Assembly (NCBI GenBank): GCA_030583745.1
Contig: CP129473.1
Span: 362,887-426,886, forward strand
DNA length: 64,000 nt
DNA from: Minisyncoccota bacterium
GTDB taxonomy: Bacteria > Patescibacteriota > Minisyncoccia > Phycocordibacterales > BOKC01
Reading direction: 5' to 3'
A program made the translations under genes and the position numbers. Below are positions 2,510 to 53,579 of the stretch, piece after piece. The first letter of the stretch is position 1, and every line of letters begins with the position of its first letter. A model generated the notes under the pieces. It was not told the DNA's origin. It did no database searches and was given only the letters and a program-made list of their open reading frames with translations.

Positions 2510-2532
2510 AAGTCTTTTTGAAAAATCGGAAT

Positions 2533-14800: not shown

Positions 14801-15270
14801 TTTAATATTTCCATACTCTTGTCTATTATGTTTTCTTCATCAGCAAAGATAAACTTACCCCTGAATTTCCGACCGGCAAAAAACAAAGGCAACCAATAAA
14901 CGTCGTCCGGCCACATTTGTCGAAACGGTATTTCGTCTAGAAAAAACCACTTCGGCTTCATCTCTTCAGTCTCCCTCTCTTCTCCGGAAAATTCAAATAC
15001 CTTAAAAACACTAACCTTCGATTTCTCCCCAGTATTTTTGAATTCAAAAAACAACTCTCCAACCTCTTCTATCTTTAAAGGTTCAATTCCAACCTCTTCT
15101 AAAAGCTCCCTTTTAACTGATTCTTCAATTGATTCTCCATCTTCCACCTTACCGCCAAAACCATTCCAACGACCAGCTCCAAATCCTCTTTTCTTATAAC
15201 CCAAAAGAACCCGCGGATGCTGATAAACTACAGCGAGAGTCAGAATCTTTTCTCCTGGTTTTGACATCAA
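14797..15270 (-). CDS. NUDIX hydrolase (MutT-like).
   Basis: Nudix box GGKVEDGESIEESVKRELLEEVGIE. 4-nt overlap with downstream DedA gene (operon). Confidence 0.8.
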   Translation of the reverse strand: MMSKPGEKILTLAVVYQHPRVLLGYKKRGFGAGRWNGFGGKVEDGESIEESVKRELLEEVGIEPLKIEEVGELFFEFKNTGEKSKVSVFKVFEFSGEERETEEMKPKWFFLDEIPFRQMWPDDVYWLPLFFAGRKFRGKFIFADEENIIDKSMEILK

Positions 15271-21712: not shown

Positions 21713-22969
21713 ATGAAAGAAAAAATCTACAACATTCTTCGGTGGAGTGAAAAATATACCAAAACCGACATGGTTTATTTAACCAAGGGTGGCTCTTGGC
21801 TTGCTCTTGAGTACTCCTTTCAGGTAGTCAGCAGTCTTTTCTTGGCGGTTGCCTTCGCTAATCTTTTACCCAAAGAGGCCTTCGGTACTTATCAGTTCAT
21901 CATTGCTATGGCATCTATCGTCAGTGTCTTTACATTAACCGGTATGAGTAGCGCCATTATGCGCTCAGTCGCTCGCGGCACTGACGGTGCCTTACGCTAC
22001 GGTCTTCAGCTTAAACTTACCTGGAGTATTGGTATTGTTTTAGCATCAGGTGGTCTTTCACTCTATTACTTTTTTAACGACAACCAAACGCTGGCAATAG
22101 CTTTTTTGATCGTCGGCGCCTTTCAGCCTCTAATCTCCAGCTTCAAACTATATGGACCCTTCTTAGTCGGTAAAAAAAATTTCCGGGAAAATTCCACGCT
22201 GAATATTCTGCAGAAATTATTGCCATTTATTCTTCTGCTTTTGGCTCTATTTCTCACGAAAAATCCGCTTATCATTGTTGCTGTCTATTTTATTGCCAAT
22301 GCTACCTCAGTGATTTTTTTGTATCGGTACACTGTTCGGAAATACAAACTGACAATTACACCCGATCCGGAACTCAAAAGCTACAGCAAACACTTAAGTT
22401 TTATGGAATCATTTTTAAAAATTGCCGGACAGTTGGATAAAATTCTTATGTGGCATTTCCTCGGAGCCGCTTCGGTCGCAATTTATACAATTGCACAGAT
22501 GCCTGTATCACACATAAAAGGTTTATTTAATTTAGGTCACTCACTTACCTTTCCAAAATTTGCTAAAAAAAATTTAACAGAGTTAAAGATAATATTACCT
22601 AAAAAAATAACTAAATATTTTTTTATTTCAATTATCACCGCTACTGTTTATATAGTGTTTGCTCCATTTCTTTTCTCAGTTTTCTTTCCAATATATTCCG
22701 AGTCAGTCTTTTATTCACAATTGCTAGCCCTTGCCATTCTTGTTGTACCAAAAACATTCATAAATCAATCTTTCATTTCCCACCAGATGAAAAAAGAGTT
22801 ATATATATCAAACATTAGCACCTCAATAATTAGAATAATTTTAATTGCAATTTTACTACCAATCTATGGTATAACAGGAGCAATTATTGCCTTAATTATC
22901 GCAGAATTTTATGAAACAGCTTTATTATGGTTTCTTTTCCGTCGTTTACGATATCCTAGGGAAATTTGA
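21713..22969 (+). CDS. Polysaccharide biosynthesis protein / oligosaccharide flippase (Wzx-like, MOP superfamily).
   Basis: 12-TM profile. N-terminal block similar to PF01943 family members. Confidence 0.6.
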   Translation: MKEKIYNILRWSEKYTKTDMVYLTKGGSWLALEYSFQVVSSLFLAVAFANLLPKEAFGTYQFIIAMASIVSVFTLTGMSSAIMRSVARGTDGALRYGLQLKLTWSIGIVLASGGLSLYYFFNDNQTLAIAFLIVGAFQPLISSFKLYGPFLVGKKNFRENSTLNILQKLLPFILLLLALFLTKNPLIIVAVYFIANATSVIFLYRYTVRKYKLTITPDPELKSYSKHLSFMESFLKIAGQLDKILMWHFLGAASVAIYTIAQMPVSHIKGLFNLGHSLTFPKFAKKNLTELKIILPKKITKYFFISIITATVYIVFAPFLFSVFFPIYSESVFYSQLLALAILVVPKTFINQSFISHQMKKELYISNISTSIIRIILIAILLPIYGITGAIIALIIAEFYETALLWFLFRRLRYPREI

Positions 22970-23157
22970 CTAACATCTAATCTATAAAAAAGATCTCAGC
23001 CGATTATGACTGAGACCTATACTAGTTAGCTCTCTCCCAGCAGGAAAGGCGAGTATCTTCTTCAACTCTTCTGAAACCGATAGACTCGACAATCCTGATG
23101 TGGTATTCGTACAGTTCAAGCGAAAAACCAAGTATTATCGGCAGAATCTAAATAAAT

Positions 23158-23958
23158 TTATTTGTTTTCCAAAATAAAAATATAATTTGGCGAGTATTCT
23201 CCGATTGAAGGTAATTGTGAGGCAATTTTATTAATCGGGTGTAAATAATCTGGTTCTTTGTTCTCCATTTTTGCAAGTTTAGCATAAACAACCCTAGAAA
23301 TAATGTAGTATAAACTGCCGATGTTGTTTGCTTCCAAAAACTTAAAATTCTTTTTTGAAAAAGAAATGAGTTTTCCTTCTGGCATATAAAAATTGTGCCA
23401 ACGAACTTTAATTGGAAAGAGATCAAATGTCTTTCGTAAATCATTCAAGCGATCTAGTCCCTCAAGAGTATTCTCGCAAAGAATTATTCTTCCTTTCTTT
23501 TTCAACAATTTCTTCATTTCTAAAAGAGAGTGTTTCTGTTCCTCCCAATTAAGTAGGTTAATCAGACATCTTTCAGACACAATAAAATCAAACTTTTGGT
23601 TTTTGAGAAATGGCAAATCTGATAATTCCCGCACATCTCCCTCCTCAAAATTTACTCTTACTTGAACAGATTTTGAAGACTTGTTAGCAGCTTGGCGTGC
23701 ATACTTTATCATTTCGCCAGAATAATCTACACCGACGAACGAAGACTTTTTAAATTTTTCGGCAAATTTAATTGTTGAATATCCATTTCCACAACCAATG
23801 TCTAATACTTTTGTGCTATCTCTTAAATAGTCTTCTATTCTGTTAACTTCCAGTTGGCGATAAAAACTATCTGGTGCAGTAGCAAGCTCAGATTGTTTAT
23901 GCTCAATTGCCATGTTATCCCAAAACTTTTTTATTTCTGTATCTCCTGTTTTTTTCAT
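23158..23958 (-). CDS. Class I SAM-dependent methyltransferase.
   Basis: Motif I VLDIGCGNGYST. Confidence 0.75.
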   Translation of the reverse strand: MKKTGDTEIKKFWDNMAIEHKQSELATAPDSFYRQLEVNRIEDYLRDSTKVLDIGCGNGYSTIKFAEKFKKSSFVGVDYSGEMIKYARQAANKSSKSVQVRVNFEEGDVRELSDLPFLKNQKFDFIVSERCLINLLNWEEQKHSLLEMKKLLKKKGRIILCENTLEGLDRLNDLRKTFDLFPIKVRWHNFYMPEGKLISFSKKNFKFLEANNIGSLYYIISRVVYAKLAKMENKEPDYLHPINKIASQLPSIGEYSPNYIFILENK

Positions 23959-23972
23959 AAAATAAACTTATC

Positions 23973-25631
23973 TTAATCTGTTAAATCCCAACTTAAGGGT
24001 GTTCCTTTTTCAATATCTGTCTTTGCTTTTTTATTCAAAATCTCATCATAAAATTTTGGAGGCAAGCCATGTCCCGGTCTTATGGATCGCACATTTTCTT
24101 TGGTCAACTTTTCCCCTTTCTTTATGTCTTGAACCGCAAATAAAGATTTTCTAAATATTACTGATCCTACCTCCGCCGTGCCGGGACCGTCTAAAACCGA
24201 TCCCAGAGCTTTTTCCGCTTGGCGAATTGAAGACACTAAATTTTTGAATTCTTCAGGCTCAAGTGAAAAACCGGCATCTGGACCTCCATCTGATCTTCTA
24301 AGGGTAAGATGTTTTTCAATTATCTTTGCCCCTAGAGAAACCGCCATCTCTGATGCCATGCTACTTAAAGAGTGATCAGAGAGACCCGTTACTACATTAT
24401 ATCTTTTTTGCAGGTCAGGAATAGTTGACAGATTCATATCTTCCGGTTTCGTCGGGTAAGAGCTTATACAGTGCAAAACTGCGACATGAGGAGTTCCTGC
24501 CTTTTTTAAGGTTTCCAAAGCCAGCTTAATTTCTTCGCTCGAAGCCATACCGCTTGACATAATCACAGGCTTTTTTGTACTACCTACCTTTTTAAGAAGT
24601 GGAATATCAACGACTTCAAATGAAGCAATTTTATAAATTGGAACATTCAACTCCTCTAAAAAATCTACGGATGTATTATCGAAGGGCGAGGAAAAAAACA
24701 CTAAACCTAATTTCTCAGCATATTCTTTAAGCTTCGGATGCCAATCCCACGGTGTATAGGCTTCGCCGTACAGCTCATATAAATTTTTTCCATCCCAAGG
24801 TCCTCCTTTAATTTTAAAATAATCCTTATTTGAATCAATGGTAATCGTATCCGGAGTATAGGTTTGAAGTTTGACCGCATCCGAACCTGAAGCGGCGGCG
24901 GCATCCATTATTCTAAAAGCATTGTTTATGTCTTGGTTGTGATTACCTGATATCTCAGCCACGATAAAAACCGGGTGGCCGTTTCCAATAAATCTTACAC
25001 CTTGAGAGTCATTAAAGCTGAGCATGTTTTTTTTATATTGACCTTTAGACAAATCTTCCAACCCCTTTTTTTCTCTCTCTTGCCAAACTTTCATATTAGG
25101 ATTGCTTTTAAATTTTTCAATCTCAATTATCCATTTTTCATAATCGCTTGCAAGTAAAACATTCTCAGCAGATTCAATATAAACTAAGTCACTTAATTTT
25201 TGTAATTCCGTAAAATGTTCTATAAATCCCTTCACTCTAGAGGCCTGGTATTCATTAGTAACAACGAAAACATCTGTATAATGATACTTTTCTATAAAGT
25301 ATTTAATAGCAAACAATTGTTCTACGGTGTCATTAGACCTACGCTCTTTTATAATTTTTTCCTTAGGGACTCCTAGCGTCTCCAATTCAAGAGCAATCAA
25401 ATCACAAAGATCGGGTCTGTTTATTTCGTCGTTTTTTACACCTCGGCCTCGGCCTCCCGGAATAAAAATTAGTGCTTCCGGATTTTTAATATATAGTTCG
25501 TATGTCGCTTTTATTCTCAGAGTACCGCCTGGGGCAAGATCAAAATCCTCGTTAGTAAAATATCCTGTACTCACCCATTTCCCGTCTTCCTTTTTTATAC
25601 CTGCACTTAAAATAACAATTACTTTTTTCAT
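23973..25631 (-). CDS. Fusion protein: N-terminal DUF218/YdcF-like domain plus C-terminal NeuB-family nonulosonic acid synthase (sialic/pseudaminic/legionaminic acid synthase) with SAF domain.
   Basis: C-terminal half matches the NeuB/PseI/LegI TIM-barrel (VFIVAEISGNHNQD..., LHCISSYPT, SAF-like tail). N-terminal 190 aa resembles DUF218. Confidence 0.8.
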   Translation of the reverse strand: MKKVIVILSAGIKKEDGKWVSTGYFTNEDFDLAPGGTLRIKATYELYIKNPEALIFIPGGRGRGVKNDEINRPDLCDLIALELETLGVPKEKIIKERRSNDTVEQLFAIKYFIEKYHYTDVFVVTNEYQASRVKGFIEHFTELQKLSDLVYIESAENVLLASDYEKWIIEIEKFKSNPNMKVWQEREKKGLEDLSKGQYKKNMLSFNDSQGVRFIGNGHPVFIVAEISGNHNQDINNAFRIMDAAAASGSDAVKLQTYTPDTITIDSNKDYFKIKGGPWDGKNLYELYGEAYTPWDWHPKLKEYAEKLGLVFFSSPFDNTSVDFLEELNVPIYKIASFEVVDIPLLKKVGSTKKPVIMSSGMASSEEIKLALETLKKAGTPHVAVLHCISSYPTKPEDMNLSTIPDLQKRYNVVTGLSDHSLSSMASEMAVSLGAKIIEKHLTLRRSDGGPDAGFSLEPEEFKNLVSSIRQAEKALGSVLDGPGTAEVGSVIFRKSLFAVQDIKKGEKLTKENVRSIRPGHGLPPKFYDEILNKKAKTDIEKGTPLSWDLTD

Positions 25632-25636
25632 AAAAA

Positions 25637-26926
25637 CTAACGTACTTTAAAAATATCGGTAATAAGCCCGCCCTCAATTCTTTTCTCCAGAGTTTTATTT
25701 TCTATGAGAGTTTTAAGTTCAGCAAAAGTCCTATCATAAGTTTTTAATAGTTTTTCCATTTGAGGTTTTGTGTGTGAGAAACTCATATTATGCTGGCCAT
25801 ACCAGAGAAAGCCAGCTTTAAGAATTTCTTGCTGAAGATAGGTTTTTATTTCTATAGCCGAATATTCATAACTATCTTTTATCATAAATAAATTCCAACA
25901 GGGCTTGCCTTTAACTTGAATAAATTCAGAAAGACCGTGCTTTACAAGAAGCTCATTGGTATTATCTTGAAGATGTTTTCCGAGTTTCCAAATATATGGA
26001 ATAACTTTTTTCTTTTCCATTTCTTTTATAGTGGCAATTGCTGCAGCGATTGAAAGGGCTTCCCCACCCTGAGTAAAAGAGTAAAAAATTTTGTCAACTG
26101 TTTGCATATATTCTCTTTTCCCTACCAAAGCCGAAATCGGCATACCGTTTGCCATTGATTTACCGAAACAAGCTAAATCCGGAGTTACATTAAAATATTT
26201 TTGTGCTCCACCTAAAGAAAACCTGAATCCACAAATAACCTCGTCAAAAATCAAAAGTGCGCCATTTTTATGAGCCACTTTTTTTACCTCTTCCAAAAAA
26301 CCCTTTTCCGGCTCCACATAATTCATCGGCTCCATTATGACTGCCGCAATCTTGCCGGGATATTTTCTGAAAAGCGCTTTAAGAGAATCTATGTCGTTGT
26401 AATAGAACTTAAGTGTTAGATTTTTTGTGGCTTTCGGCACACCCAAATCACGAGTAGTTGAACCAATATACCAATCATGCCAGCCGTGGTATCCGCATAC
26501 CGCAACATAATCCCGCCCTGTATAAGCACGGGCAACCCTTATCGCTCCGGTCGTGGCATCCGATCCATTTTTTCCGAATCGCACCATTTCGGCGCAAGGT
26601 ATATGTTTTATTAAAAGCTCGGCCAATTCATATTCCAAAGGAGAAGGTAAGGAAAGAATGATTCCTTTTTTTAGTTGGGCTTTAATTGCATTGTCCACCG
26701 CCGGATACTGATAACCTAAAACCACCGGCAAAAGAGCGTTTATCATATCTACATACTCATTTCCGTCCACATCCCAAATTTTTGCGCCTTTAGCATGAGT
26801 AGCAAAAAGCGGTGCTTGACCTTTGATAAATTGAAGGTGGCTTTTACTGAAAGTTTGCGAAGCGAGAGGAATAACTTTCTCCACCCTTTTGAATAATTCG
26901 CTACTTTTCTTTAATTTGAGTTTCAT
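25637..26926 (-). CDS. Class-III (GSA-aminotransferase-like) PLP-dependent aminotransferase.
   Basis: hemL-like blocks, e.g. FDEVICGFR; a Lys-bearing segment FGKSMANG is present. Confidence 0.75.
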   Translation of the reverse strand: MKLKLKKSSELFKRVEKVIPLASQTFSKSHLQFIKGQAPLFATHAKGAKIWDVDGNEYVDMINALLPVVLGYQYPAVDNAIKAQLKKGIILSLPSPLEYELAELLIKHIPCAEMVRFGKNGSDATTGAIRVARAYTGRDYVAVCGYHGWHDWYIGSTTRDLGVPKATKNLTLKFYYNDIDSLKALFRKYPGKIAAVIMEPMNYVEPEKGFLEEVKKVAHKNGALLIFDEVICGFRFSLGGAQKYFNVTPDLACFGKSMANGMPISALVGKREYMQTVDKIFYSFTQGGEALSIAAAIATIKEMEKKKVIPYIWKLGKHLQDNTNELLVKHGLSEFIQVKGKPCWNLFMIKDSYEYSAIEIKTYLQQEILKAGFLWYGQHNMSFSHTKPQMEKLLKTYDRTFAELKTLIENKTLEKRIEGGLITDIFKVR

Positions 26927-27012
26927 TTTTTTATCTAATTTCTAAGCTAAAGTATTAGATATTATACAAAACTTCTTTGCTTATTGAAATTTAAAAAACC
27001 AAGAAATAAATT

Positions 27013-27047
27013 TGACAAAAAAATGATTTTGACTTATGATTAAGTCT
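27013..27047 (+). promoter_or_regulatory. Sigma70-like promoter for the 27117 gene (ttgaca -17 nt- tatgat).
   Basis: Seen in sequence. Confidence 0.4.
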
Positions 27048-27116
27048 GTTGTTCTTCGTCGTCTCATTTACCTGAAATCTTGATCTAGGAGGTGTCCCCT
27101 GATATCCGAACAAGTC

Positions 27117-27683
27117 TTGCGAAAGAGTCTTAGGCGAGAGTTCGAAACTTTGCGTATGAGGAAGGCATACGAGTTACCAGACAACGTACAAGCAATCGTG
27201 AACCTGATCGGCGCAGGCAAAAAGTGTGCCGAGGATGTTTCAAGAACTGGTCACGTTGCTCGACTCGTGAGTCAGATTGGAGCAACAGGTTCAGGTCTTC
27301 CTGTGGTTTTTCTAAACGGAGAGTCAGAAGAGCTTGAAAATATGGTGGAGCTTGCCGTTCAAGCCGATATTCCGCCTCAGATCATCCGACTCCAAGACTG
27401 TGGTCGGAAAGGTGAGGCGAATACCAAAACTCAATTTCAGGCTTTGAAAGCCGACTTGGAGTCGTATGCGCTTTCGCGCATTGTTTTGGTGACAAGCACT
27501 TACCATGTTCCCCGGGTCGCAAGAACGGCGGTTAAACACCTCCCGCCGAGTGTCTGGTTTACTGTTGTCTCTGATCTGAACGATATTGAGCTCTACGACT
27601 GGGAGGAGAGGGTGGGGAGCGAAATTGAACGGATCATCCGTTACGTCGCAAAGGGAGACATTAGCGCCGAATTGCCGGCATAA
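27117..27683 (+). CDS. DUF218/YdcF-family protein, GC-rich (~50% GC), probably horizontally acquired.
   Basis: LVTSTYHVPRVARTA matches the DUF218 hallmark. aggagg SD upstream. ORF-track TTG start; ATG at 27156 also possible. GC content clearly above flanks. Confidence 0.55.
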   Translation: MRKSLRREFETLRMRKAYELPDNVQAIVNLIGAGKKCAEDVSRTGHVARLVSQIGATGSGLPVVFLNGESEELENMVELAVQADIPPQIIRLQDCGRKGEANTKTQFQALKADLESYALSRIVLVTSTYHVPRVARTAVKHLPPSVWFTVVSDLNDIELYDWEERVGSEIERIIRYVAKGDISAELPA

Positions 27684-27703
27684 TCTCCCGACCATAAGTG
27701 AAA

Positions 27704-27737
27704 AGGGGTGTCCTTAACCGGGCACCCTTTATTTTTT
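27704..27737. terminator. Hairpin plus T-run terminator (gggtgtcc-ttaacc-gggcaccc tttatttttt), overlapping the 3' end of the convergent cytidylyltransferase gene.
   Basis: Seen in sequence. Confidence 0.55.
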
Positions 27738-28475
27738 GTCCTCTTTTAGTGATTTTAACAAACCTTCATTTCGCACAATTTTAGCATTCTTTGCCATCAC
27801 CTCTGGATTTTCAAGAAGCAAGTCGCAGTATTCCTTAAATTCAAGCTCATATCCATAATTTTCAATCAAAAACTTAATTACTTCAAAATCTTCGGGGTTG
27901 TCGACGGTCAAACGGAATTTTGAAAGATCTTGATCGTTTTCTATATTTACCTTTTTGTACTTTGGATTATTACGGATATACAAAGTTACATGTTCCCTTT
28001 CAGATCCAAGCTTGGCTTCTTCATCTGATTCAAGCAAAGATTTTCTAGTGAAGACTTCTACATCAATACCGTCTGGGTAAGTTTCCTTAAGAGCATTACT
28101 TGCGTAGTCTGCTTTTTCTTTTTTAAAAGCTGAAACTACTTCGTCTACAACTTCTGGATCAATAAGCGGGCAATCGCCGGTAACGCGAACAATTGTGTCA
28201 AACTCTGGATACTCTCTAGCGCAATCGGCAAAACGCTTTAAAACGTCGTTCAAAGATCCGCGAAAATAATTTTGATTGTTCCCGCGACAAAACTCTATAA
28301 CCTCGTTATCATCTTCGTGATCACTCGTTGCTAAAACAATTTTGTCAATTTTTTCGGATTTTTTAAGGCGTTCCAAAACATACCAAAGCATCGGCTTTCT
28401 GTTTATTTCTTTCAAGATTTTGCCTGGTAAACGAGTCGAGCTAATTCTAGCTTGAACAATACAGAGAGTTTTCAT
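27729..28475 (-). CDS. Acylneuraminate/pseudaminate cytidylyltransferase (CMP-nonulosonic acid synthetase, NeuA/PseF/SpsF-like).
   Basis: N-terminal CIVQARISSTRLPGK and CTP_transf_3 fold signature. Confidence 0.75.
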   Translation of the reverse strand: MKTLCIVQARISSTRLPGKILKEINRKPMLWYVLERLKKSEKIDKIVLATSDHEDDNEVIEFCRGNNQNYFRGSLNDVLKRFADCAREYPEFDTIVRVTGDCPLIDPEVVDEVVSAFKKEKADYASNALKETYPDGIDVEVFTRKSLLESDEEAKLGSEREHVTLYIRNNPKYKKVNIENDQDLSKFRLTVDNPEDFEVIKFLIENYGYELEFKEYCDLLLENPEVMAKNAKIVRNEGLLKSLKEDKK

Positions 28476-29425
28476 ATCAGGTATTTTAAAATTTCTTTAG
28501 CTTGGGTAACATCGTTAAAAGTTTTCTTTTTTTCCTTTACTGATTTCAAAAAATATTTAACTTCTTCAATATACATCTCGTTTTTATCGTATTCTTTTTC
28601 TCCAAAAATTTTCTTTACACTCTTCTCATTTTCAAGCCAGACAATATTCTCATTCCAATCCCAAGATAAATTACCTTTTTCTCCGACAACCCGACAAATT
28701 CTATGATATTTTTTAGACAAATAATCACAAGACACTGAACCAGATAAACCGTTTTTAAACTGAAAAATTCCCTTAGCGATATCTTCTGTTTCAATTTTCA
28801 AACTACCACTGTGTTCCTTAATAATTAAGTGTTTTTTTACTGGCGAAAAATTATTGATCCAAAACAGAAGATCAAATTCGTGAATATCGTCTAAAACTAT
28901 CCCTCCGCCCATTTTATTTTTCGCGGCATAGTTTTTTCTGTAATCAGTTCCCGGCCGCCAATATGGAAGATAATATCCGAACTCGTGGTCTACGCTATAA
29001 ATCTTACCAAGTTTTCCACTATCAATATATTTTTTGATTACCAAAAAGGCTGGATGAAAACGCATATTGCAGGCAACCATATCTATAAGTTTTTTACTTT
29101 TTAAAAGTTTTTCCAGTTTAGTTACGCCCTTCAAATCATGAGAAAGGGGTTTTTCAATAAAAAGATGAAGTCCGGCTTCAGCGCATTTAATAGAAGCTTC
29201 AACATGTTTATGATTTGGGTTGCAAATAAATGCAATATCAAAGTTACCCAAAGTTTTCTTATCCAGGATTTTTATCTTTAATTTCTGATATTTGATCTTT
29301 TTTACATCTGTATCAAAAACAGTAATGTTTTTATAACCAAGAGAAACAAGATTCCTGTAATGCCTCTGCCCAATCGATCCAAACCCGATTATTAGAATTT
29401 TTGTATTATTTTTTGTCTCCTGCAT
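28472..29425 (-). CDS. Gfo/Idh/MocA-family NAD(P)-dependent oxidoreductase.
   Basis: Rossmann motif ILIIGFGSIGQRH. Start trimmed to MQETKNN (29425). Confidence 0.7.
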   Translation of the reverse strand: MQETKNNTKILIIGFGSIGQRHYRNLVSLGYKNITVFDTDVKKIKYQKLKIKILDKKTLGNFDIAFICNPNHKHVEASIKCAEAGLHLFIEKPLSHDLKGVTKLEKLLKSKKLIDMVACNMRFHPAFLVIKKYIDSGKLGKIYSVDHEFGYYLPYWRPGTDYRKNYAAKNKMGGGIVLDDIHEFDLLFWINNFSPVKKHLIIKEHSGSLKIETEDIAKGIFQFKNGLSGSVSCDYLSKKYHRICRVVGEKGNLSWDWNENIVWLENEKSVKKIFGEKEYDKNEMYIEEVKYFLKSVKEKKKTFNDVTQAKEILKYLI

Positions 29426-31202
29426 GATACATCTTATAAAAAAAAGAATCTGTTCTAGAAAGCAAATCCCCCGGTTTCCCCTCCTCAATAATCCGACCTT
29501 TGTCCAAAACTAAAAGATGATCAACATTCATAATCGTTGACAAGCGATGAGCAATTATAAAAAGAGTGGTTTCCCCACGGAGATTATCAATGGCTCTACG
29601 TACTGCTAATTCTGACTCATTATCAAGAGCACTAGTTGCTTCGTCAAGGATAAGAAGTTGGGGATTGCGAGCAAAGACACGCGCCAAAATAAGCCTTTGG
29701 CGCTGTCCGACAGACAACATCATGCCACGATCACCGACCAAAGTGTCCAAACCTTGAGGAAGTTCTCTTATTAGATCTCTTATATAGGACTTTTCTAATG
29801 CTTCAATAACACGCTCGTCGCTTATACTTTCGTCATACAACTTTATATTGCTTCTAATAGTGTCGTGTAGCAAAAAGGGATCTTGTGATACATATCCGAT
29901 ATTGCGTCGCCATTCGTCAAGATCAAATTCGTTTGCTTCTACCCCATCAAGCAGAATTTTACCGGAACCAGGATTAAACAAGCGCAACAAAAGATCAGCT
30001 AGAGTGGTTTTACCTGCACCAGAAGAACCAATAATTCCAACCGACGCGCCCTTGCGAACAGTAAAGCTAATATCTTTAAAAACAGGTTCGCGATTATCGT
30101 AAGAAAAAGCAACATTTGAAAACTTAAGATCGTTCTTAAAAACAAAAGGTTTGCCTCCTTGAGAAATTTCCTCTTTGGAATTCAAAAGAGCGTAGTGAAA
30201 TTCAGCGAAATTACTTACATGAGGTACGTAACTTACAAGAGACTGGAGAACACTTTGAATCGATTGGATTTGAGATACAACTCTATAGATTAGGTATAAA
30301 AGGACTGCGAATACAGCAAAATTAAACTCTGGCTTCCCGTAAGAAAAAAAGAATGTGATAAAAATTATTAAAACTGCCAGCGGTTGGAAAAAAATTGTAC
30401 CTAAAGGATAAAGAGCCGAGAAACGCAAACTAGCATCGGTAAAATCAGTTGCAAATTTATCGCTTTGTCTCTGTACAAACACCCTGGAAATTCCGGTTTT
30501 AATCATCTTAATCCCGGTCATGAGTTGGTACATATAATGGACAAAGTCTTTTTCAATCTCTATAATCTTTCTTGAATAGCGACGAATAGCGACTAGTACA
30601 AAACGCAAAAGTAACATAAATACCAAACCGCTACCTAATGCCACAGCAGTCATTAAAGGAGAGATCATAAAAGCAAACACTATATAAACAACCAGGAGCA
30701 AGGAACTGTGAAGCAAACCTATCCCGCGCGATAGAAAATCAATCACCTGGGGAATATCTCGAGACATAATGTATTGAACATGACCGAACTTCTGTTTTAT
30801 TAAAAACAGCCAATTGGCATTGTAGGCATTCAGCAGAAAGTTCTGTCTAAGTAATATGGAGAGTTTATAGCTTAAAAAGTTTTGCAGAAAAGACGCCACC
30901 CAGAGCATGGAAGCTCTGGCTACAAAAAAGAAAAATATTAAAAGCAATAAAACTTGCGGACTTTGATCTACTTGTAGTCGCGAGATTAATCCATAAAAAA
31001 AAGCAATTACCTTATTTGGAGCCTCGTAAGGGACACCACTTAACGAAGAAAGAAAAGGAATCAAGATTGTAATGCCAAAGCTTTCAAAAAGCGCTCCCAA
31101 AAAAGTTACTAAAAAAATCGGTATGATAAGAAACCAAAATCGACGTAGTAGCTCCGAGATAAACCTTACTGTTGTAGAACTGTTTAGGTATCGTTGAATC
31201 AT
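29406..31202 (-). CDS. ABC transporter, fused permease/ATPase exporter (MsbA-like).
   Basis: 6-TM domain plus Walker A GSSGAGKTT, signature LSVGQRQRL, Walker B LLILDEATSALD. Confidence 0.85.
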   Translation of the reverse strand: MIQRYLNSSTTVRFISELLRRFWFLIIPIFLVTFLGALFESFGITILIPFLSSLSGVPYEAPNKVIAFFYGLISRLQVDQSPQVLLLLIFFFFVARASMLWVASFLQNFLSYKLSILLRQNFLLNAYNANWLFLIKQKFGHVQYIMSRDIPQVIDFLSRGIGLLHSSLLLVVYIVFAFMISPLMTAVALGSGLVFMLLLRFVLVAIRRYSRKIIEIEKDFVHYMYQLMTGIKMIKTGISRVFVQRQSDKFATDFTDASLRFSALYPLGTIFFQPLAVLIIFITFFFSYGKPEFNFAVFAVLLYLIYRVVSQIQSIQSVLQSLVSYVPHVSNFAEFHYALLNSKEEISQGGKPFVFKNDLKFSNVAFSYDNREPVFKDISFTVRKGASVGIIGSSGAGKTTLADLLLRLFNPGSGKILLDGVEANEFDLDEWRRNIGYVSQDPFLLHDTIRSNIKLYDESISDERVIEALEKSYIRDLIRELPQGLDTLVGDRGMMLSVGQRQRLILARVFARNPQLLILDEATSALDNESELAVRRAIDNLRGETTLFIIAHRLSTIMNVDHLLVLDKGRIIEEGKPGDLLSRTDSFFYKMYHAGDKK

Positions 31203-31217
31203 TTTTTAAAGAAATAT

Positions 31218-32324
31218 CTAATCTTTTTTGAAAAAGTCTTTCAATGTTTTTGCTATAAAATTGATATCCTTGTCAGACAACAAAGGGTGAATGGGTAGAG
31301 TGATAGCTGTCTTATGATATAAATCAGTATTTTTTAATTTTGTTTTTGCATAGCCATTTTTTCTATAATAAGGATGGGAGTAAACTGCCGGATAATGGAA
31401 ATTTACTCCAATACCTTTTTCTTTCAAAAAATTATAAAGAGGAAAACGATCTTTTTCTTTTACAGTTCTAATAACATAAACATGCCAACCAGATAAGACA
31501 TTTTCTGACTCAATTGGTAAAATTATTTCTTTAATGCCTCCGATTAATTTCTCATACTTTTTTACAATCACTCTTCTCTTTTCAACAAAATAAGGGAGAC
31601 GTTCTAATTGAGACAACCCTAGTGCGCACTGAATATCAGTTATACGGTAGTTATACCCCATTTCTGTCATAACATTAAAACCTTTTTTATCCTTATGGAT
31701 TCCGTGACTTCGTAATGACAAAAGTCGGTCATATGATTTTTTACTATTTGTTAGAATAGCCCCTCCTTCACCTGTTGTTATGGCTTTCACAGCATGAAAA
31801 CTCATGACGGTCATATCCCCTATCCCACCAATTGGTTTTTTCTTATAAACGGAACCGAGAGCATGACATCCGTCTTCGATAACTTTCAATTTATACTTTT
31901 TGGCAATTTTTAAAATTGTATCCATTTCACAAGCTCCCCCAGCAAAATGAACGGGAACAATCGCTTTGGTTTTTTTATTAATAAGACCCTCTATTTTTGT
32001 TTCATCAATATTATAAGTATCAAGACGAATGTCACAAAAGACAGGTTTGGCGCCAACTGCAAGCAACATATTTGAAGTTGCCACAAAAGTATTAGGTGTT
32101 GTTATAACTTCGTCCCCTTCCTTTAGACCAGCGACAAGGTATGCGAGATGTAATGCAGCCGTACCGTTTGATACAGCTATCGCGTATTTGGACCCACAAT
32201 ATTTTGCTAAGGCATTTTCAAACTCCAAAACTTTTGGCCCCTGCGTTAAAAAAGGAGATTTTAAAGCTTTAACTACTGCATCAATATCACTTTTGTCTAA
32301 ACATTGTTTTCCGTAAGGAATCAT
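31218..32324 (-). CDS. DegT/DnrJ/EryC1/StrS-family PLP-dependent sugar aminotransferase (PseC/ArnB-like).
   Basis: Conserved fold-type I sugar aminotransferase blocks throughout. Confidence 0.85.
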   Translation of the reverse strand: MIPYGKQCLDKSDIDAVVKALKSPFLTQGPKVLEFENALAKYCGSKYAIAVSNGTAALHLAYLVAGLKEGDEVITTPNTFVATSNMLLAVGAKPVFCDIRLDTYNIDETKIEGLINKKTKAIVPVHFAGGACEMDTILKIAKKYKLKVIEDGCHALGSVYKKKPIGGIGDMTVMSFHAVKAITTGEGGAILTNSKKSYDRLLSLRSHGIHKDKKGFNVMTEMGYNYRITDIQCALGLSQLERLPYFVEKRRVIVKKYEKLIGGIKEIILPIESENVLSGWHVYVIRTVKEKDRFPLYNFLKEKGIGVNFHYPAVYSHPYYRKNGYAKTKLKNTDLYHKTAITLPIHPLLSDKDINFIAKTLKDFFKKD

Positions 32325-32403
32325 ATAATTTAAAATTTGTATTTTTGCCTAAAAAATCATCGCGGAGTAAGATTAAAAAAACCCGAAAACCTGTAAATTT
32401 AAT

Positions 32404-33414
32404 TTAAAGCATTTGTTTTTCTAGCTCTTTTGCTATCTTAAGCAAATCGTTACGGCTCATTTGTAAAGTATTAGTATCGCTGGTAAAGGAAAAATCTGCC
32501 GGAATTTTCTTGCCCTTAGTCTTATGTTTTTTAAACCTCAAAGAATTAATGTATTTATGTTCTGGCAATATTACAAAATAGCTATCAAGTTCAAGCGAAT
32601 GTCTGGCTTCTTCCGCAGTTAGTAGAACCTCATGAATTTTTTCTCCAGGTCTAATACCACTCACCTCTTTTTTAAGATTTGGAGCGATGGTTTCAAAAAT
32701 ATCTTTTATCGACATGCTGGGAACTTTTTTAGGTATAAATATCTCACCGCCTTCCATCTGTTTCAGAGCAAATAAAACCAACTGGAAGGATTCTTCCAGC
32801 CTTAACCAAAACCTGGTCATTCTCTCATCTGTAAGACAAATGCTTTCTTTATTTTTATTCTTCAAAAGAATTTCTATGATACTACCGCGACTGCCGATAA
32901 CATTACCGTATCTCACACAGCTAAACTTTGTATATTCACCAGCGTAGACATTGCTTGCAATAAAAAGTTTCTCGGCACACAATTTTGTAGAACCATACAG
33001 ATTTACCGGCTGAGCAGCTTTATCTGTTGAAACCAAAAGCACTTTAGAAACACCTTGATCTACAGCGGCTTCAATTACATTTTGTGTTCCCAATACATTC
33101 GTCTTTACTGCTTCAATTGGATTGTATTCCAAGGTCGGAACTTGTTTTAAAGCGGCAGCGTGGACAATAATATCTACGCCATGAAAAGCCCTTTGCAACC
33201 TTGATAAATCTCTTATGTCACCCAGAAAAAAACGCACACGGTCATCTTTAAATTCCTCAGCCATTACTGACTGTTTTAATTCATCTCGGCTAAAAACAAT
33301 GAGCTTCTTCAAGGAATGATTTTCTAGAAGATGTCTGGCAAAATTTTTACCAAAAGAACCAGTCCCTCCGGTAATAAGCAAAGTTTTGTTTTTCAAAAAA
33401 TCGTTTTTTTTCAT
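32404..33414 (-). CDS. UDP-GlcNAc 4,6-dehydratase (PseB/FlaA1/CapD-like SDR).
   Basis: TGGTGSFG Rossmann motif; the Yxxx(A)K catalytic motif is present (YGSTK). Confidence 0.85.
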   Translation of the reverse strand: MKKNDFLKNKTLLITGGTGSFGKNFARHLLENHSLKKLIVFSRDELKQSVMAEEFKDDRVRFFLGDIRDLSRLQRAFHGVDIIVHAAALKQVPTLEYNPIEAVKTNVLGTQNVIEAAVDQGVSKVLLVSTDKAAQPVNLYGSTKLCAEKLFIASNVYAGEYTKFSCVRYGNVIGSRGSIIEILLKNKNKESICLTDERMTRFWLRLEESFQLVLFALKQMEGGEIFIPKKVPSMSIKDIFETIAPNLKKEVSGIRPGEKIHEVLLTAEEARHSLELDSYFVILPEHKYINSLRFKKHKTKGKKIPADFSFTSDTNTLQMSRNDLLKIAKELEKQML

Positions 33415-33454
33415 ATTTTATATGGATAAACTTATGATTTCCAAAGTATATTAA

Positions 33455-34144
33455 TTAAACTCCAGCCGAAAAGCTTTTTAATGATTTTCTTAGTAAAGTA
33501 CAAGCCCCCCTGCCAGAGGAGTCAACTTTAGCGTCTAGCTTATCGTAATCTTGACTGAAAGTAAAACGTCCAACTGGAGTATATATAGCAGTGGAAGTAA
33601 AAATTTTAGGATAATCTAGTTTGTAAGTATATACGTTCTTTTCCGGCAAATGATGGTAAAGAACTCGTGTTGGCACATCCGGTGAAAAATCACTGATAAT
33701 TAGGAAGCCCTCGTTTTTTACTAATCTATCAATTTCTGATACAGATTTTAAAAGTCCATCTCGAGCTATCCAATGAAAAACGAAAGAGACAATCACCAAA
33801 TCAAAAGAACCTTCGATCGGCATTTTTGATGCCAAAGCTCGTTGTAATTTTAATTTTGGATAACGCTTCTTACCATCGCGAACAGCTTCAGCAGAAGGTT
33901 CTACCCCCACACATTCTGCTTTGTATTTTTTTTGTAAATTATTCAACCTCCAACCGTTACTGCATCCAACTTCCAAAATTCGTCTAGGCTTAATACTGTA
34001 TTCCCCAAGCATCTTTAACACTTGATCTTCACTAGAAACAGAACGCTTTTTGGTAATTTTGTCTTTATTTCTAGTAAACCAATTGTCTCCCTCGTAATCA
34101 AAAAAAATACTGTCCTGGTTCATATATGACATCCATATTAGCAA
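33455..34144 (-). CDS. Class I SAM-dependent methyltransferase.
   Basis: ILEVGCSNGWRL motif I. Confidence 0.65.
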   Translation of the reverse strand: MLIWMSYMNQDSIFFDYEGDNWFTRNKDKITKKRSVSSEDQVLKMLGEYSIKPRRILEVGCSNGWRLNNLQKKYKAECVGVEPSAEAVRDGKKRYPKLKLQRALASKMPIEGSFDLVIVSFVFHWIARDGLLKSVSEIDRLVKNEGFLIISDFSPDVPTRVLYHHLPEKNVYTYKLDYPKIFTSTAIYTPVGRFTFSQDYDKLDAKVDSSGRGACTLLRKSLKSFSAGV

Positions 34145-34359: not shown

Positions 34360-34734
34360 TTAATCATTATTCCAAAAATTAATTACATTATTCCACTCAT
34401 TTTTAAGATTGTCTGATAAATAAATCAAAAATTCCTCAGGATTAGCGTCTTTTTCCCAAGAAATATTATTTTGCAAGGTTTCTAATAATCCTATTGTAAT
34501 TGCTTCTTTGACATATCTATCGCCATCTTTAAATATGTTATCTATCAGTTTAAATATTGTTTTTAGTTCTTCTTCCTTTTTTTCTTTATAAAGTTTTAAA
34601 ATGTATCTGGAAAGCTCTGCAAGAATTGTGTAGACATCTTCTTTCTCCCAAACAAATTCCATAAACTCTAAATATCCTCTGAACCCATCAGATTTTTTGA
34701 CTATGTGGTCTGTTAAATCTCTCTTAGTAAACAT
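34360..34734 (-). CDS. Hypothetical 124-aa acidic protein; candidate immunity protein for the orphan toxin 34735..35505.
   Basis: Position immediately downstream of toxin cassette with 1-nt spacing. No recognisable family. Confidence 0.4.
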   Translation of the reverse strand: MFTKRDLTDHIVKKSDGFRGYLEFMEFVWEKEDVYTILAELSRYILKLYKEKKEEELKTIFKLIDNIFKDGDRYVKEAITIGLLETLQNNISWEKDANPEEFLIYLSDNLKNEWNNVINFWNND

Positions 34735-35505
34735 TTATTTTTTTATCTTACTAAGTGCATCCTTAAGATCTTTGGAAATTCTGTTTAGAACATTCCTCTC
34801 TTGAGAATTCAAACTAGATCCATGTTTATCAAATATATTATCAATTCTATTTAGGGTATTACGCGCCTTTTCAATATGGGTGGAACCCCCAACCGGGTCG
34901 CCTGTCTTTGCGGTATGTCTTATTGCGTCTGCCGTGCTACCATCCCCTATTTTCGATCCTGCTCTATAATTATCTCTTATAAGGTTAAGGATGCTTTCAT
35001 TCTCTACACCTTTCATTAAGGAACGACCCACCATATTAGTGCTTCTAAAAGCATCCCCCAACGCACCAAATACTCCAGGAATAACAGAAACTCCAGCCAA
35101 AGCTCGCTCACCCCAACTCAATCCTTCACCAGTAAATACATCTTGACCAGTGCGTGCTTCTTGAATTGCAATAGCATCACTGGAGCCGGGCGCGAAGTTA
35201 AGGGCAGTCTGGTAATTATCAACCAGTATCGGCACCAGATGAACATTTGAGGCGATGAACGAAGAGATGGCGATGAGAGCGGGGGCTAGTTGAATAAACT
35301 CCCCTCCCGGGTCCACATGTTTGATCGGATTCCCCCTAGCATAACTGTACGAATTATGCAGTTGCGGATCAGAAAGGTATTGCTCTAGTTCAAGGTTGGT
35401 TTTGTTCTTTATTTCCCCAGGATTACCTACCGCAAGAAAGACTGGGTCCTGACTCAAGAACCTAGCGGTCTTACCATCCTGATACCTCGCCACCATGTAG
35501 TTCAA
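34735..35505 (-). CDS. Orphan RHS C-terminal cassette 2: conserved core tail (in-frame extension up to ~35640 without ATG) plus divergent C-terminal toxin domain of unknown type.
   Basis: N-terminus MNYMVARYQDGKTARFLSQDPVFLAVGN parallels the main RHS junction NYMNARYQDGKVGRFISQDPVFLAVGN. Upstream in-frame sequence encodes ...TDYYPYGKIKLDE. Confidence 0.6.
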   Translation of the reverse strand: MNYMVARYQDGKTARFLSQDPVFLAVGNPGEIKNKTNLELEQYLSDPQLHNSYSYARGNPIKHVDPGGEFIQLAPALIAISSFIASNVHLVPILVDNYQTALNFAPGSSDAIAIQEARTGQDVFTGEGLSWGERALAGVSVIPGVFGALGDAFRSTNMVGRSLMKGVENESILNLIRDNYRAGSKIGDGSTADAIRHTAKTGDPVGGSTHIEKARNTLNRIDNIFDKHGSSLNSQERNVLNRISKDLKDALSKIKK

Positions 35506-35668
35506 ATCAGTAGCTTCGTCATAGAAGTGCCCGGTGAATTTTCTTCTTTCTTTAAATGTACCTGTCGTCTCGTCTAACTTTATCTTACCATACGGGTAGT
35601 AGTCCGTAACCTCTGTTAATCCACCTCTACTGGTGGATTAGCGAAATAATAAATTAAAAAGAAATTTG

Positions 35669-35917
35669 TTAAATTTTCATGTGGGGAGAACAAAAACCTG
35701 TGAGATAATCTAAGGCCTCTAATACCCAATCTTCATCTTTCTCTCTGCCTTCTTTCCGTAGAAAAAGCATATACTCTGTCACATCGCTCTCTAATTGTTT
35801 CCGATCATACCCTTCCTTGAGAATCTTAATGAAAAGTTCGCGCATTTTAAGATCAGGGTCCATTTCTGCCTTGAGAGCTTCCTCTATACCATTTATCAAT
35901 TCTTCTTTCTTTTTCAT
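35669..35917 (-). CDS. Hypothetical 82-aa protein; candidate immunity protein for orphan cassette 1.
   Basis: Genomic position only. Confidence 0.35.
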   Translation of the reverse strand: MKKKEELINGIEEALKAEMDPDLKMRELFIKILKEGYDRKQLESDVTEYMLFLRKEGREKDEDWVLEALDYLTGFCSPHMKI

Positions 35918-35920
35918 AAA

Positions 35921-36676
35921 TTAAAGCTTTTTCCAGAATTCTTGGGTAGATTGCATTAGTTTATCAAGCTTGCTTTTAGACATACTGTTAGAAGGTTGTA
36001 TAGTGCCGTGAGTAGAACTATCTGGAACATATTTAAGACCGCTCGGTAAATTAGAGCATTTTATGCACCATACTGGATCTTTTCCTGTGCCTCCAAATTC
36101 TGGTGTGCGTCTATGTATTTGTAGATTATAGGGACTATTAGGACTAACCGACATTCCCCCATCTGCGGAATGAACAAAACCTTTTGCATCTATAGGAATA
36201 TCCCTTCCTAATCTTACCCCTAACCCTCTCGCGGAATTTTCTACCATCGGAAGTCCGTCGGGACCCTCTTTCATCGCCCTAAATAGAAGCGTTTCTCCAA
36301 CATCATCCACTTTATTCACCGCCGCTCCTACCGCCTTATTCACCCCCTTAGAAGCGCCTCCACCCGGAGCGACGATTGAGCCGACCAGGATAGCGGCTTC
36401 CAGTCCGGGATTTTCAAAATTATCGCTGGTTGGAGCGTAAGCAACATTGGGAGTCAAAAGCCCGATAATAGCGGCTAAAACTAAACCTTCCCCCGTCGGA
36501 TCAACATACTTTAGAGGATTGTTGGCCACATAACTGTAGGAGTTTAGCTCTTGAGGATTTATCAGTAGTTGTTCCAGAGTTCTGTCGTATTTACTCAAAT
36601 CCTTTCCGACATCATGGAACATGGGATCTTGTGAGATAAATCTCCCAACCTTCCCATCTTGATAACGGGCGTTCAT
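35921..36676 (-). CDS. Orphan RHS C-terminal cassette 1: core tail (in-frame extension to ~36843, 160 bp identical to main RHS) plus distinct C-terminal toxin domain of unknown type.
   Basis: MNARYQDGKVGRFISQDP junction identical to main gene. DNA 36623..36783 matches 37826..37987. Confidence 0.6.
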   Translation of the reverse strand: MNARYQDGKVGRFISQDPMFHDVGKDLSKYDRTLEQLLINPQELNSYSYVANNPLKYVDPTGEGLVLAAIIGLLTPNVAYAPTSDNFENPGLEAAILVGSIVAPGGGASKGVNKAVGAAVNKVDDVGETLLFRAMKEGPDGLPMVENSARGLGVRLGRDIPIDAKGFVHSADGGMSVSPNSPYNLQIHRRTPEFGGTGKDPVWCIKCSNLPSGLKYVPDSSTHGTIQPSNSMSKSKLDKLMQSTQEFWKKL

Positions 36677-36866
36677 GTAATTAAGGTCGGTATCTTCATC
36701 GTAGGTGTGGCCGGTGTATTTCTTTGACGTTTTGAAAGTGCTGGCTTGTTCGTCTAGTTTTATCTTACCATACGGATAGTAGTCAGTAACCTCTGCTAAT
36801 CCACCGTTTGAGTTGGTGACAACACTGGTGCCGCCTAGGTGAAAAGTTAAGAGCTCCTATTGTTAC

Positions 36867-37127
36867 TCACGATAACTTTAAAATTGATTCTGCGATTTTA
36901 TAATATTTCTTGCTATCCCCAGCTATATTTTCATCAAACTGATCTACAAAGACTGTATATAGTTTTTCTCCAAGTTCATATTTATCATCTTCCTTGTTTA
37001 ACAATGGTATGATAAATTTTTCAACCAGTGGATCATATTCATCATTAGGTGCACCAGTTCTTATAAGATCAACGGGGTCGTGGTTTCGAAAGATGTCTTT
37101 TATTTCTTTTATATAATTCTTTTCCAT
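36867..37127 (-). CDS. Hypothetical 86-aa acidic protein; candidate immunity protein for the main RHS toxin.
   Basis: 2-nt gap downstream of RHS stop. Small acidic cytoplasmic protein. Confidence 0.4.
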   Translation of the reverse strand: MEKNYIKEIKDIFRNHDPVDLIRTGAPNDEYDPLVEKFIIPLLNKEDDKYELGEKLYTVFVDQFDENIAGDSKKYYKIAESILKLS

Positions 37128-37129
37128 TT

Positions 37130-50416: not shown

Positions 50417-50425
50417 ATAATAAAT

Positions 50426-51466: not shown

Positions 51467-51470
51467 ATAA

Positions 51471-52466: not shown

Positions 52467-52472
52467 AAAAAA

Positions 52473-53576: not shown

Positions 53577-53579
53577 TTT

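Follow-up and report, generated by a model that had tools for sequence, protein, structure and literature searches.

A DUF218-PseI fusion in a Patescibacteria pseudaminic acid locus and a candidate non-homologous replacement for PseG

Introduction

The canonical pathway for pseudaminic acid (Pse) of Campylobacter jejuni and Helicobacter pylori relies on the six enzymes PseB, PseC, PseH, PseG, PseI and PseF. This route requires no 2-epimerisation, and the release of UDP is normally carried out by PseG, an enzyme of the GT-B fold. Here we describe a Pse-type locus within a 64,000-nucleotide stretch of the genome of a Minisyncoccota bacterium of the Patescibacteria (contig CP129473.1, positions 362,887 to 426,886; hereafter, the window), in which the synthase PseI is fused to a DUF218 domain and PseG is missing. 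Comparison with related loci suggests, at about an even chance, that a DUF218 subfamily supplies the UDP-release step in place of PseG.

DUF218 is a large superfamily that includes the Escherichia coli proteins ElyC, SanA, YdcF and YgjQ and is tied by genetics to the balance of envelope precursors (PMC12176290). ElyC and SanA, both periplasmic and anchored in the membrane, have been linked to the balance of the enterobacterial common antigen (ECA) and peptidoglycan, and the loss of either raises ECA or peptidoglycan synthesis, with no reaction assigned to them (PMC12176290). The superfamily fold resembles that of the adenine-nucleotide alpha-hydrolases, which cleave alpha-beta phosphate bonds (PMC12176290). 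Full-text searches found no literature linking DUF218 or YdcF with pseudaminic acid, and none on pseudaminic or nonulosonic acids in Patescibacteria or the candidate phyla radiation (CPR); the replacement of PseG by DUF218 is thus a specific, testable hypothesis that is apparently unreported.

Results

A pseudaminic acid-type pathway without PseG and PseH

The open reading frames (ORFs) of the window were scanned with Pfam and NCBIfam equivalog models and their cut-offs. The ORF listing together with these scans located on the minus strand every gene that the initial annotation had named (Table 1). The 4,6-dehydratase scored 442.8 bits with the PseB model TIGR03589 (cut-off 407.75), the DegT-family aminotransferase 437.8 bits with the PseC model TIGR03588 (cut-off 423.5), and the NeuB domain of the fusion 481.5 bits with the PseI model TIGR03586 (cut-off 340.25; residues 221-546). 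Because PseB, PseC and PseI all exceed their equivalog cut-offs, the pathway is, as judged from sequence, of the Pse type and not that of N-acetylneuraminic acid (Neu5Ac), legionaminic acid (Leg), 3-deoxy-D-manno-octulosonic acid (KDO) or 3-deoxy-D-arabino-heptulosonate 7-phosphate (DAHP). The synthase remained at 314.3 bits with NeuB_NnaB (TIGR03569, cut-off 399.65) and the locus had no NeuC; the LegB and LegC models gave 60.7 bits (cut-off 475) and 267.5 bits (cut-off 420), respectively; no Epimerase_2 domain of the LegG/NeuC type was present in the window ORFs scanned; and DAHP synthase models gave only about 25 bits with the synthase. The initial proposal of a nonulosonic acid locus is therefore borne out and can be narrowed to Pse, and profile scores set aside both a KDO- or DAHP-type synthase and a different deoxysugar pathway, either of which would have spoken against it. 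The PseI domain shares 60-68% identity with many 354-aa Patescibacteria PseI proteins and is thus an ordinary PseI of this lineage.

The cytidylyltransferase scored 282.9 bits with an SpsF-type hidden Markov model (HMM) versus 46.8 bits with a PseF-type one, and 33.8 bits with the PseF model TIGR03584 (cut-off 205.7). An SpsF-type enzyme is the sole cytidylyltransferase in 26 of the 79 phylogenetically diverse PseI loci that served as our comparison set, as well as in the minimal Patescibacteria loci L103 and L132 described below, and the window enzyme is the presumed CMP-Pse synthetase. In Bacillus subtilis, spsF encodes a putative cytidylyltransferase required for the transfer of nonulosonic acid to the spore surface (PMC7439481). 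Since B. subtilis is reported to make legionaminic acid with its Sps homologs (PMC7439481), the stereochemistry of the product cannot be read from homology alone.

Six-frame searches of all 64 kb with our own HMMs, built from 53 PseG and 24 PseH sequences, revealed no PseG function (TIGR03590) in the window, the best match (17.6 bits) lying on a GT4 glycosyltransferase, and no PseH function (TIGR03585), with a best match of 4.8 bits. Pfam domains of other acyltransferases were likewise absent from all window ORFs scanned. The lack of evident PseG and PseH pointed out for the Pse genes by the initial annotation thus holds across the whole window. Relatives carry a GNAT or formyltransferase-like gene after pseI, and L131, the closest relative with an unfused synthase, has a formyl-type acyltransferase gene between pseI and the gene of a 261-aa methyltransferase that shows the same Pfam matches as the one that follows the fusion in the window. 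The window genome may encode its N-acyltransferase elsewhere, or it may modify the 7-amino group in another way.

A DUF218 subfamily associated with PseI

The initial annotation had assigned residues 4-141 of the 552-aa fusion protein to DUF218 and the following ones to a linker, but residues 1-202 make up a complete subfamily domain. Its score with Pfam PF02698 was 42.1 bits (cut-off 27.6). A profile built from three Pse-linked DUF218 domains was scored against 1.84 billion cluster representatives and retrieved 242 clusters at E<=1e-30, nearly all of about 205 aa and mostly standalone, which match the full 202-position profile, including a conserved C-terminal helical extension (positions about 150-202) that lies outside the Pfam model. 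This exhaustive search was far more sensitive than a word-indexed homolog search with the DUF218 domain, which returned one relative. In an alignment of 124 subfamily sequences E82, R132 and E187 were invariant, and W19, R39, A42, G59, T102, N126, H129, E156 and Y199 were at least 90% conserved. The domain belongs to PF02698 by its YdcF-like Rossmann/AANH-like fold as well, and a sequence-profile search of the PDB found no related solved structure. The Pse-linked proteins form a distinct subfamily of PF02698, predicted to be cytoplasmic and soluble.

The identical 552-aa fusion was called on two independent Logan assemblies, whose agreement rules out an assembly artefact as its origin. A second DUF218-PseI fusion of the same architecture (P0052, 48% identical) was present in three other data sets, which answers in the affirmative the question, raised initially, of whether such fusions recur, and a PseI-GNAT-DUF218 triple fusion also exists (P0096).

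In the N-x-Y-H-x-P-R motif of the fused copy, Gln129 replaces His and Ser131 replaces Pro. The copy keeps all the remaining invariant residues, those at the Glu positions included, as well as Thr102. The change of His to Gln was observed in 5 of the 124 sequences, all otherwise well conserved, including the standalone protein P0134 encoded next to pseI in L134, and Gln at position 129 may thus be tolerated. The loss of this His did not correlate with a neighboring NUDIX-GNAT gene: L106, L107 and L126 keep His and L134 has Gln.

DUF218 in the position of PseG

To place the subfamily in context, 48 loci of the DUF218 type were collected, namely 44 metagenome loci retrieved by a 9-sequence alignment of the subfamily, three Patescibacteria PseI relatives chosen from the match list blind to their neighbors, and one locus with the His-to-Gln variant. 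Wherever context was available, the DUF218 gene was located directly upstream of pseI. The genes typically run from PseB and PseC through optional tailoring genes to the SpsF-type cytidylyltransferase, which is followed by an optional class-III aminotransferase, DUF218, PseI and lastly a GNAT or formyltransferase-like gene. Two minimal loci, L103 and L132 (Candidatus Buchananbacteria), were reduced to PseB-PseC-cytidylyltransferase-DUF218-PseI-GNAT; as predicted from their sequences, this is the set of five canonical functions plus DUF218 in the usual place of PseG.

PseG was found in 53 of the 79 diverse PseI loci, and the DUF218 subfamily in none of them; conversely, none of the 48 loci of the DUF218 type contained PseG. 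Among the non-redundant PseI loci that span 6 kb or more, PseG occurred without DUF218 in 51 and DUF218 without PseG in 17, both were missing from 24, and no locus carried the two together (Fisher p about 1e-7, a value that overstates the independence of the loci).

The fusions of the two proteins run in parallel. Fusions to PseH-type GNAT domains were observed for PseG in 15 diverse loci and for DUF218 in 6 clusters, DUF218 being N-terminal like PseG, and fusions to SpsF-type (CTP_transf_3) cytidylyltransferases for PseG in L059 and for DUF218 in 4 clusters. The subfamily was also joined to formyltransferase domains (4 proteins), to PseI (2, in addition to the triple fusion), to Gfo/Idh/MocA oxidoreductases (2 clusters), to a HAD hydrolase (1 cluster, P0252) and to a methyltransferase (1 protein, L105), partners with which no PseG fusion was seen. 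The fusion partners of DUF218 hence cover every pathway step after PseC, PseG itself excepted.

In other lineages, Pse loci with neither PseG nor DUF218 contain other hydrolase-like proteins in the same slot (L019 8645-9412; L068 6705-7460; L024 8751-9989; L060 8773-9965; L037 8685-9962). The occupants comprise a TIM barrel resembling xylose isomerase, which stands by itself or is joined to GNAT, a HAD plus NUDIX pair, and a 265-aa domain fused to GNAT; the HAD plus NUDIX pair occupies the slot in L060, a Patescibacteria locus without DUF218. As such proteins fill the slot elsewhere, the PseG step seems especially prone to replacement by non-homologous enzymes. Two further candidates for the slot were rejected. 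Cluster c7, a protein of about 357 aa encoded between PseC and the cytidylyltransferase in 8 loci, was considered as a hidden PseG, but its only match, to Acetyltransf_6, was weak and the minimal loci do not have it. The second, g23 (about 187 aa), occupies the PseG slot in Bacteroidota loci and was considered as a DUF218 protein, but is actually a second GNAT. Fusions of 591-594 aa with a divergent NeuB-like domain (N-terminal) and an SpsF-type cytidylyltransferase (C-terminal) were also observed (L001 8223-9998 and L015 3222-5006), that of L001 being encoded directly upstream of a DUF218-PseI fusion.

Organization of the locus

The initial annotation had described the Pse genes as one strand-contiguous block. 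A second DUF218 gene, on the plus strand, lies inside this block, and the Pse genes therefore form two operons rather than one (Table 1). The probable terminator between the convergent plus-strand and cytidylyltransferase genes, a hairpin of 11 pairs that include 6 G-C pairs, is the top terminator-like site of the region. The promoter candidate of the plus-strand gene, a consensus match only, is contained in a 230-bp AT-rich divergent intergenic region, within which the promoter of the downstream minus-strand operon must also be located.

Table 1. Predicted features of the window. Coordinates are positions within the 64,000-nucleotide stretch.
Feature	Coordinates	Strand	Matches and remarks
Wzy_C (O-antigen ligase / O-oligosaccharyltransferase-like, PglL-like) membrane protein	19448-21625	-	C-terminal tetratricopeptide (TPR) repeats
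Wzx-like polysaccharide flippase	21713-22969	+	Polysacc_synt
Terminator-like hairpin after last methyltransferase gene	22991-23018	-	11-pair stem and T-run
Class I S-adenosylmethionine (SAM)-dependent methyltransferase	23158-23958	-	Last gene of second operon; Pfam Methyltransf_31/25/11
DUF218 + NeuB + SAF fusion	23973-25631	-	552 aa
PseI domain with SAF	23973-24986	-	Fusion residues about 216-552
Pse-type DUF218 subfamily domain	25026-25631	-	Fusion residues 1-202
Class-III (HemL-like) pyridoxal phosphate-dependent aminotransferase or aminomutase	25637-26926	-	First gene of second operon; Pfam Aminotran_3, 170 bits
Sigma-70-like promoter candidate for plus-strand DUF218 gene	27012-27040	+	11/12 hexamer matches, tied best in region
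Standalone divergent DUF218 (ElyC/SanA/YdcF family) gene	27156-27683	+	175 aa; Pfam DUF218
G+C-rich hairpin and T-run, probable terminator	27703-27730		Between convergent plus-strand DUF218 and cytidylyltransferase genes
SpsF-type CTP_transf_3 cytidylyltransferase	27729-28475	-	Pfam CTP_transf_3, 120.6 bits
Gfo/Idh/MocA oxidoreductase	28472-29425	-	317 aa by gene call; Pfam GFO_IDH_MocA and C-terminal domains
Half-size ABC exporter, HepA/MsbA/PglK type	29406-31202	-	ABC_membrane and ABC_tran
PseC, UDP-4-amino-4,6-dideoxy-N-acetyl-beta-L-altrosamine transaminase	31218-32324	-	TIGR03588
PseB, UDP-GlcNAc inverting 4,6-dehydratase	32404-33414	-	TIGR03589; Pfam Polysacc_synt_2
Class I SAM-dependent methyltransferase	33455-34123	-	First gene of upstream operon; Pfam Methyltransf_11/25
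Three paralogous KpsC/KpsS-like Capsule_synth proteins	43825-48407	-	About 480 aa each; Pfam Capsule_synth 25-37 bits, cut-off 20

The methyltransferase that opens the upstream operon has 222 aa by the gene call in relatives (L005), the longest ORF starting at 34144. It matched the Pse-associated methylase model TIGR03587 weakly (31 bits, cut-off 112), and homologs are present in the DUF218-type Pse loci L088, L091 and L092. The top NCBIfam match of the ABC exporter was HepA_fam_ABC (352 bits, under its cut-off), and its cargo is probably a lipid-linked or polymeric glycan. The class-III aminotransferase reached 401 bits with NF004856, under the cut-off of 486. The presence of two methyltransferases and an aminotransferase makes methylated or aminated Pse derivatives, as suggested in the initial annotation, plausible.

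The plus-strand DUF218 gene sits in a patch of raised G+C content. Its product scored 32 bits with Pfam DUF218 (cut-off 27.6) and only 21 bits with the HMM of the Pse-type subfamily, and is hence very divergent from it; the YHxPR motif is retained (STYHVPR). The gene is called in L005, L006 and L138-140, with the NCBI name 'ElyC/SanA/YdcF family protein', and Pse genes accompany this type only in the window genome. It is not related to the opposite-strand gene c31 found at the same position in relatives, whose product, to judge by its sequence, seems to be a membrane protein with several passes. A 43%-identical homolog (P0279) was observed directly downstream of a UDP-GlcNAc 2-epimerase-family (Epimerase_2) gene in L136 (6808-8690), an unrelated CPR sugar cluster that links this second DUF218 type to nucleotide sugars.

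Lineage-typical genes and the tailoring cassette

The composition of the locus, initially regarded as unusual, is standard for Pse loci of Patescibacteria, where an ABC exporter, a cassette of oxidoreductase, SpsF-type cytidylyltransferase and class-III aminotransferase, and a DUF218 gene beside pseI are found. Homologs of the ABC exporter flank the Pse genes in L092, L103, L119, L126, L132 and L134. The cassette with a Gfo/Idh/MocA oxidoreductase is shared with L109, L128, L131 and L133, and an aldo-keto reductase replaces the oxidoreductase in other loci. Class-III aminotransferase homologs, and the cassette with them, were identified in 20 of the 48 loci of the DUF218 type, where the homologs are usually encoded directly upstream of the DUF218 gene, and in 9 of the 79 diverse loci, each time together with a cytidylyltransferase of the SpsF type. 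The complete cassette extends over several phyla (L024, L028, L036, L037, L043, L046, L056, L085, L109, L131 and L133) and was never observed in a PseF-only locus. The cassette might carry out a keto/amino modification at one of the hydroxyl groups of Pse or CMP-Pse. In L131, sulfotransferase and ATP-sulfurylase/APS-kinase genes (2023-3057 and 12292-13926) lie beside the Pse genes, which suggests that some Patescibacteria may make sulfated Pse derivatives.

The wider glycan region

The Wzx-like flippase encoded after the second operon is probably part of the same glycan system. Patescibacteria are assumed to lack an outer membrane, and the Wzy_C protein could be an O-oligosaccharyltransferase for protein glycosylation. 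On the other side of the Pse genes, the three KpsC/KpsS-like paralogs have homologs of about 500 aa that flank the Pse genes in 13 of the 48 loci of the DUF218 type, and also in L131, L132 and L134. In Acinetobacter capsules, the transfer of Pse is predicted to fall to KpsS-like proteins, and on this basis the paralogs are candidate CMP-Pse-dependent glycosyltransferases. They are followed by five GT4 glycosyltransferase genes and a small methyltransferase gene (48637-54800), so that the glycan region extends to about 35 kb.

As to the surface proteins noted nearby in the initial annotation, the large neighbor at 37130-43663 (minus strand) is a 2177-aa Rhs/SpvB/FG-GAP polymorphic toxin and no obvious glycoprotein target. 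Orphan toxin cassettes are located downstream of it on the same strand, encoding a Tse2-like ADP-ribosyltransferase (35921-36676), a PT-TG pre-toxin (34735-35505) and a DUF7674 protein (34360-34734). This toxin locus (34360-43663) separates the Pse genes from the KpsC-like genes, which adjoin in relatives. Near the 3' end of the window there are an IS200-like Y1 transposase gene (60961-61644) and a LAGLIDADG endonuclease fragment (63623-63982).

Discussion

Elimination, synteny, mutual exclusion with PseG and parallel fusions together form the basis on which we propose that the DUF218 subfamily supplies the UDP-release step in place of PseG, a proposal that we judge to be as probably right as wrong. 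According to it, PseB and PseC would convert UDP-GlcNAc into UDP-4-amino-4,6-dideoxy-beta-L-AltNAc, and an N-acyltransferase, none of which is encoded in the window, would then modify the 4-amino group. In Patescibacteria generally, the DUF218 subfamily, with a predicted nucleotide-binding fold like that of the adenine-nucleotide alpha-hydrolases, would free 2,4-diacetamido-2,4,6-trideoxy-L-altrose from UDP, PseI would condense the freed sugar with phosphoenolpyruvate, and the SpsF-type cytidylyltransferase would activate the product with CMP, the expected end product being CMP-activated pseudaminic acid or a tailored derivative. In the window genome the DUF218 gene is fused in frame to the adjacent pseI gene, which would place two consecutive steps on one polypeptide. 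The product would then probably be transferred by the KpsC/KpsS-like transferases and exported or flipped by the ABC exporter and the Wzx/Wzy_C proteins. Gene identities, fusions, synteny and the mutual exclusion with PseG are observed; what the DUF218 domain catalyses and what becomes of the sugar are inferred here from gene content and context. The initial annotation regarded DUF218 as an oddity of the synthase; the fusion itself stands, but the missing PseG would be better explained by the DUF218 protein.

Several observations weigh against this proposal. Its basis is comparative genomics throughout. All DUF218 loci belong to a single lineage, and their sampling differed from that of the PseG set, so that the exclusivity is confounded by phylogeny; the 24 loci without both genes indicate that the absence of a nearby PseG is not diagnostic by itself; and the contexts span +/-10 kb, which leaves room for an unlinked PseG elsewhere in those genomes. 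Moreover, the window lacks any N-acyltransferase equivalent to PseH, and the pathway as written is thus incomplete here. The fused copy also has Gln129 where 116 of the 124 subfamily members have His, and the equivalent His is reported to be essential in SanA as part of a putative Thr/His/Glu catalytic triad (PMC12176290). Finally, the HAD-DUF218 fusion P0252 and the NUDIX-GNAT genes directly upstream of DUF218 in L106, L107 and L134 would fit a function other than complete UDP release.

These last associations would be expected if the release took place in two steps, with DUF218 acting only as a UDP-sugar pyrophosphatase that yields UMP and sugar-1-phosphate, or only as a sugar-1-phosphate phosphatase after a NUDIX enzyme. 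The resemblance of the fold to alpha-beta phosphate cleavers, the HAD plus NUDIX pair in the PseG slot of L060 and a NUDIX gene (14797-15270) 8 kb away in the window point in the same direction. However, neither NUDIX nor HAD genes are near most loci of the DUF218 type, including the minimal L103 and L132, the NUDIX and HAD associations imply opposite halves of the reaction for DUF218, and NUDIX genes are common housekeeping genes, all of which makes a two-step release rather improbable. The Gln129 and Ser131 replacements, together with the intact STYHVPR of the plus-strand protein and the position of its homolog P0279 directly after a UDP-GlcNAc 2-epimerase-family gene, might alternatively indicate that the fused domain is degenerate and serves as a scaffold, the activity being supplied by the plus-strand gene; but the same His-to-Gln change in other members, among them P0134 next to pseI, the retention of all other invariant residues, and the divergence of the plus-strand gene, which is found with Pse genes nowhere but in the window genome, render this quite improbable, the least probable of the possibilities that we consider.

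Another view is that DUF218 has an accessory, tailoring or regulatory role, for example as a regulator that binds SAM or nucleotides, as an esterase or deacylase, or as a scaffold for PseI, while an unlinked or unrecognized enzyme releases UDP. E. coli YdcF has been described as SAM-binding or SAM-utilising (title of entry 3CA8), the subfamily is fused also to the tailoring enzymes Gfo/Idh/MocA and methyltransferase, the fused copy lacks the conserved His, and 24 PseG-less loci have neither protein nearby. Nevertheless, one would not expect PseG to be excluded by a protein of accessory function, and the DUF218 subfamily is absent from every PseG-bearing locus; the gene is kept in minimal six-gene loci without tailoring genes, and the commonest fusion partner of DUF218 is the PseH-type GNAT, exactly as for PseG. 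We therefore regard an accessory role as unlikely and retain UDP release by the DUF218 subfamily as the working proposal.

What makes this proposal useful is that a six-step pathway with five steps assigned and one vacant defines a candidate substrate for the DUF218 subfamily. If true, Pse biosynthesis in Patescibacteria relies on a non-orthologous enzyme, and annotation pipelines that demand PseG would score the pathway as incomplete. More tentatively, and with doubts that outweigh our confidence, the Pse-linked DUF218 proteins might represent a new enzyme class that cleaves the glycosyl-diphosphate linkage of UDP-sugars, a non-homologous analogue of PseG, and, by extension, the ElyC/SanA/YdcF superfamily might act on nucleotide- or undecaprenyl-diphosphate-linked sugars. 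If so, the increase in ECA or peptidoglycan output upon loss of ElyC or SanA could be due to their action on sugar-diphosphate-undecaprenol.

With respect to ElyC and SanA, the Pse-linked subfamily differs in being predicted as cytoplasmic, in contrast to these membrane-anchored proteins of the periplasm, and in being strictly tied to Pse genes. Compared with PseG, it shares the same operon position, the same fusion partners (GNAT/PseH and SpsF-type cytidylyltransferase) and, by our proposal, the same step, but the sequences are unrelated and the folds differ, the DUF218 protein having one Rossmann-like, YdcF-like domain (about 200 aa) and PseG the two domains of a GT-B protein (about 280-350 aa). 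In the Neu and Leg pathways the analogous nucleotide-release step belongs to NeuC and LegG, enzymes of the Epimerase_2 type that have no homolog in the window locus. The sps genes of B. subtilis (SpsC, D, E, F, G and M) share with the window a homologous SpsF-type cytidylyltransferase and SpsE-like synthase, and the loci L065, L071 and L075 show 50-51% identity to the window PseI domain; B. subtilis, however, has the PseG-like SpsG and the retaining dehydratase SpsM, whereas SpsG is absent from the window and the dehydratase encoded there is of the inverting PseB type. With the canonical pathway of C. jejuni and H. pylori the window shares orthologs of PseB, PseC and PseI, and the gene order of the minimal loci parallels the common B-C-F-G-H-I order; the window differs in lacking PseG and PseH, in having an SpsF-type instead of a PseF-type cytidylyltransferase, and in the presence of DUF218 at the position of PseG.

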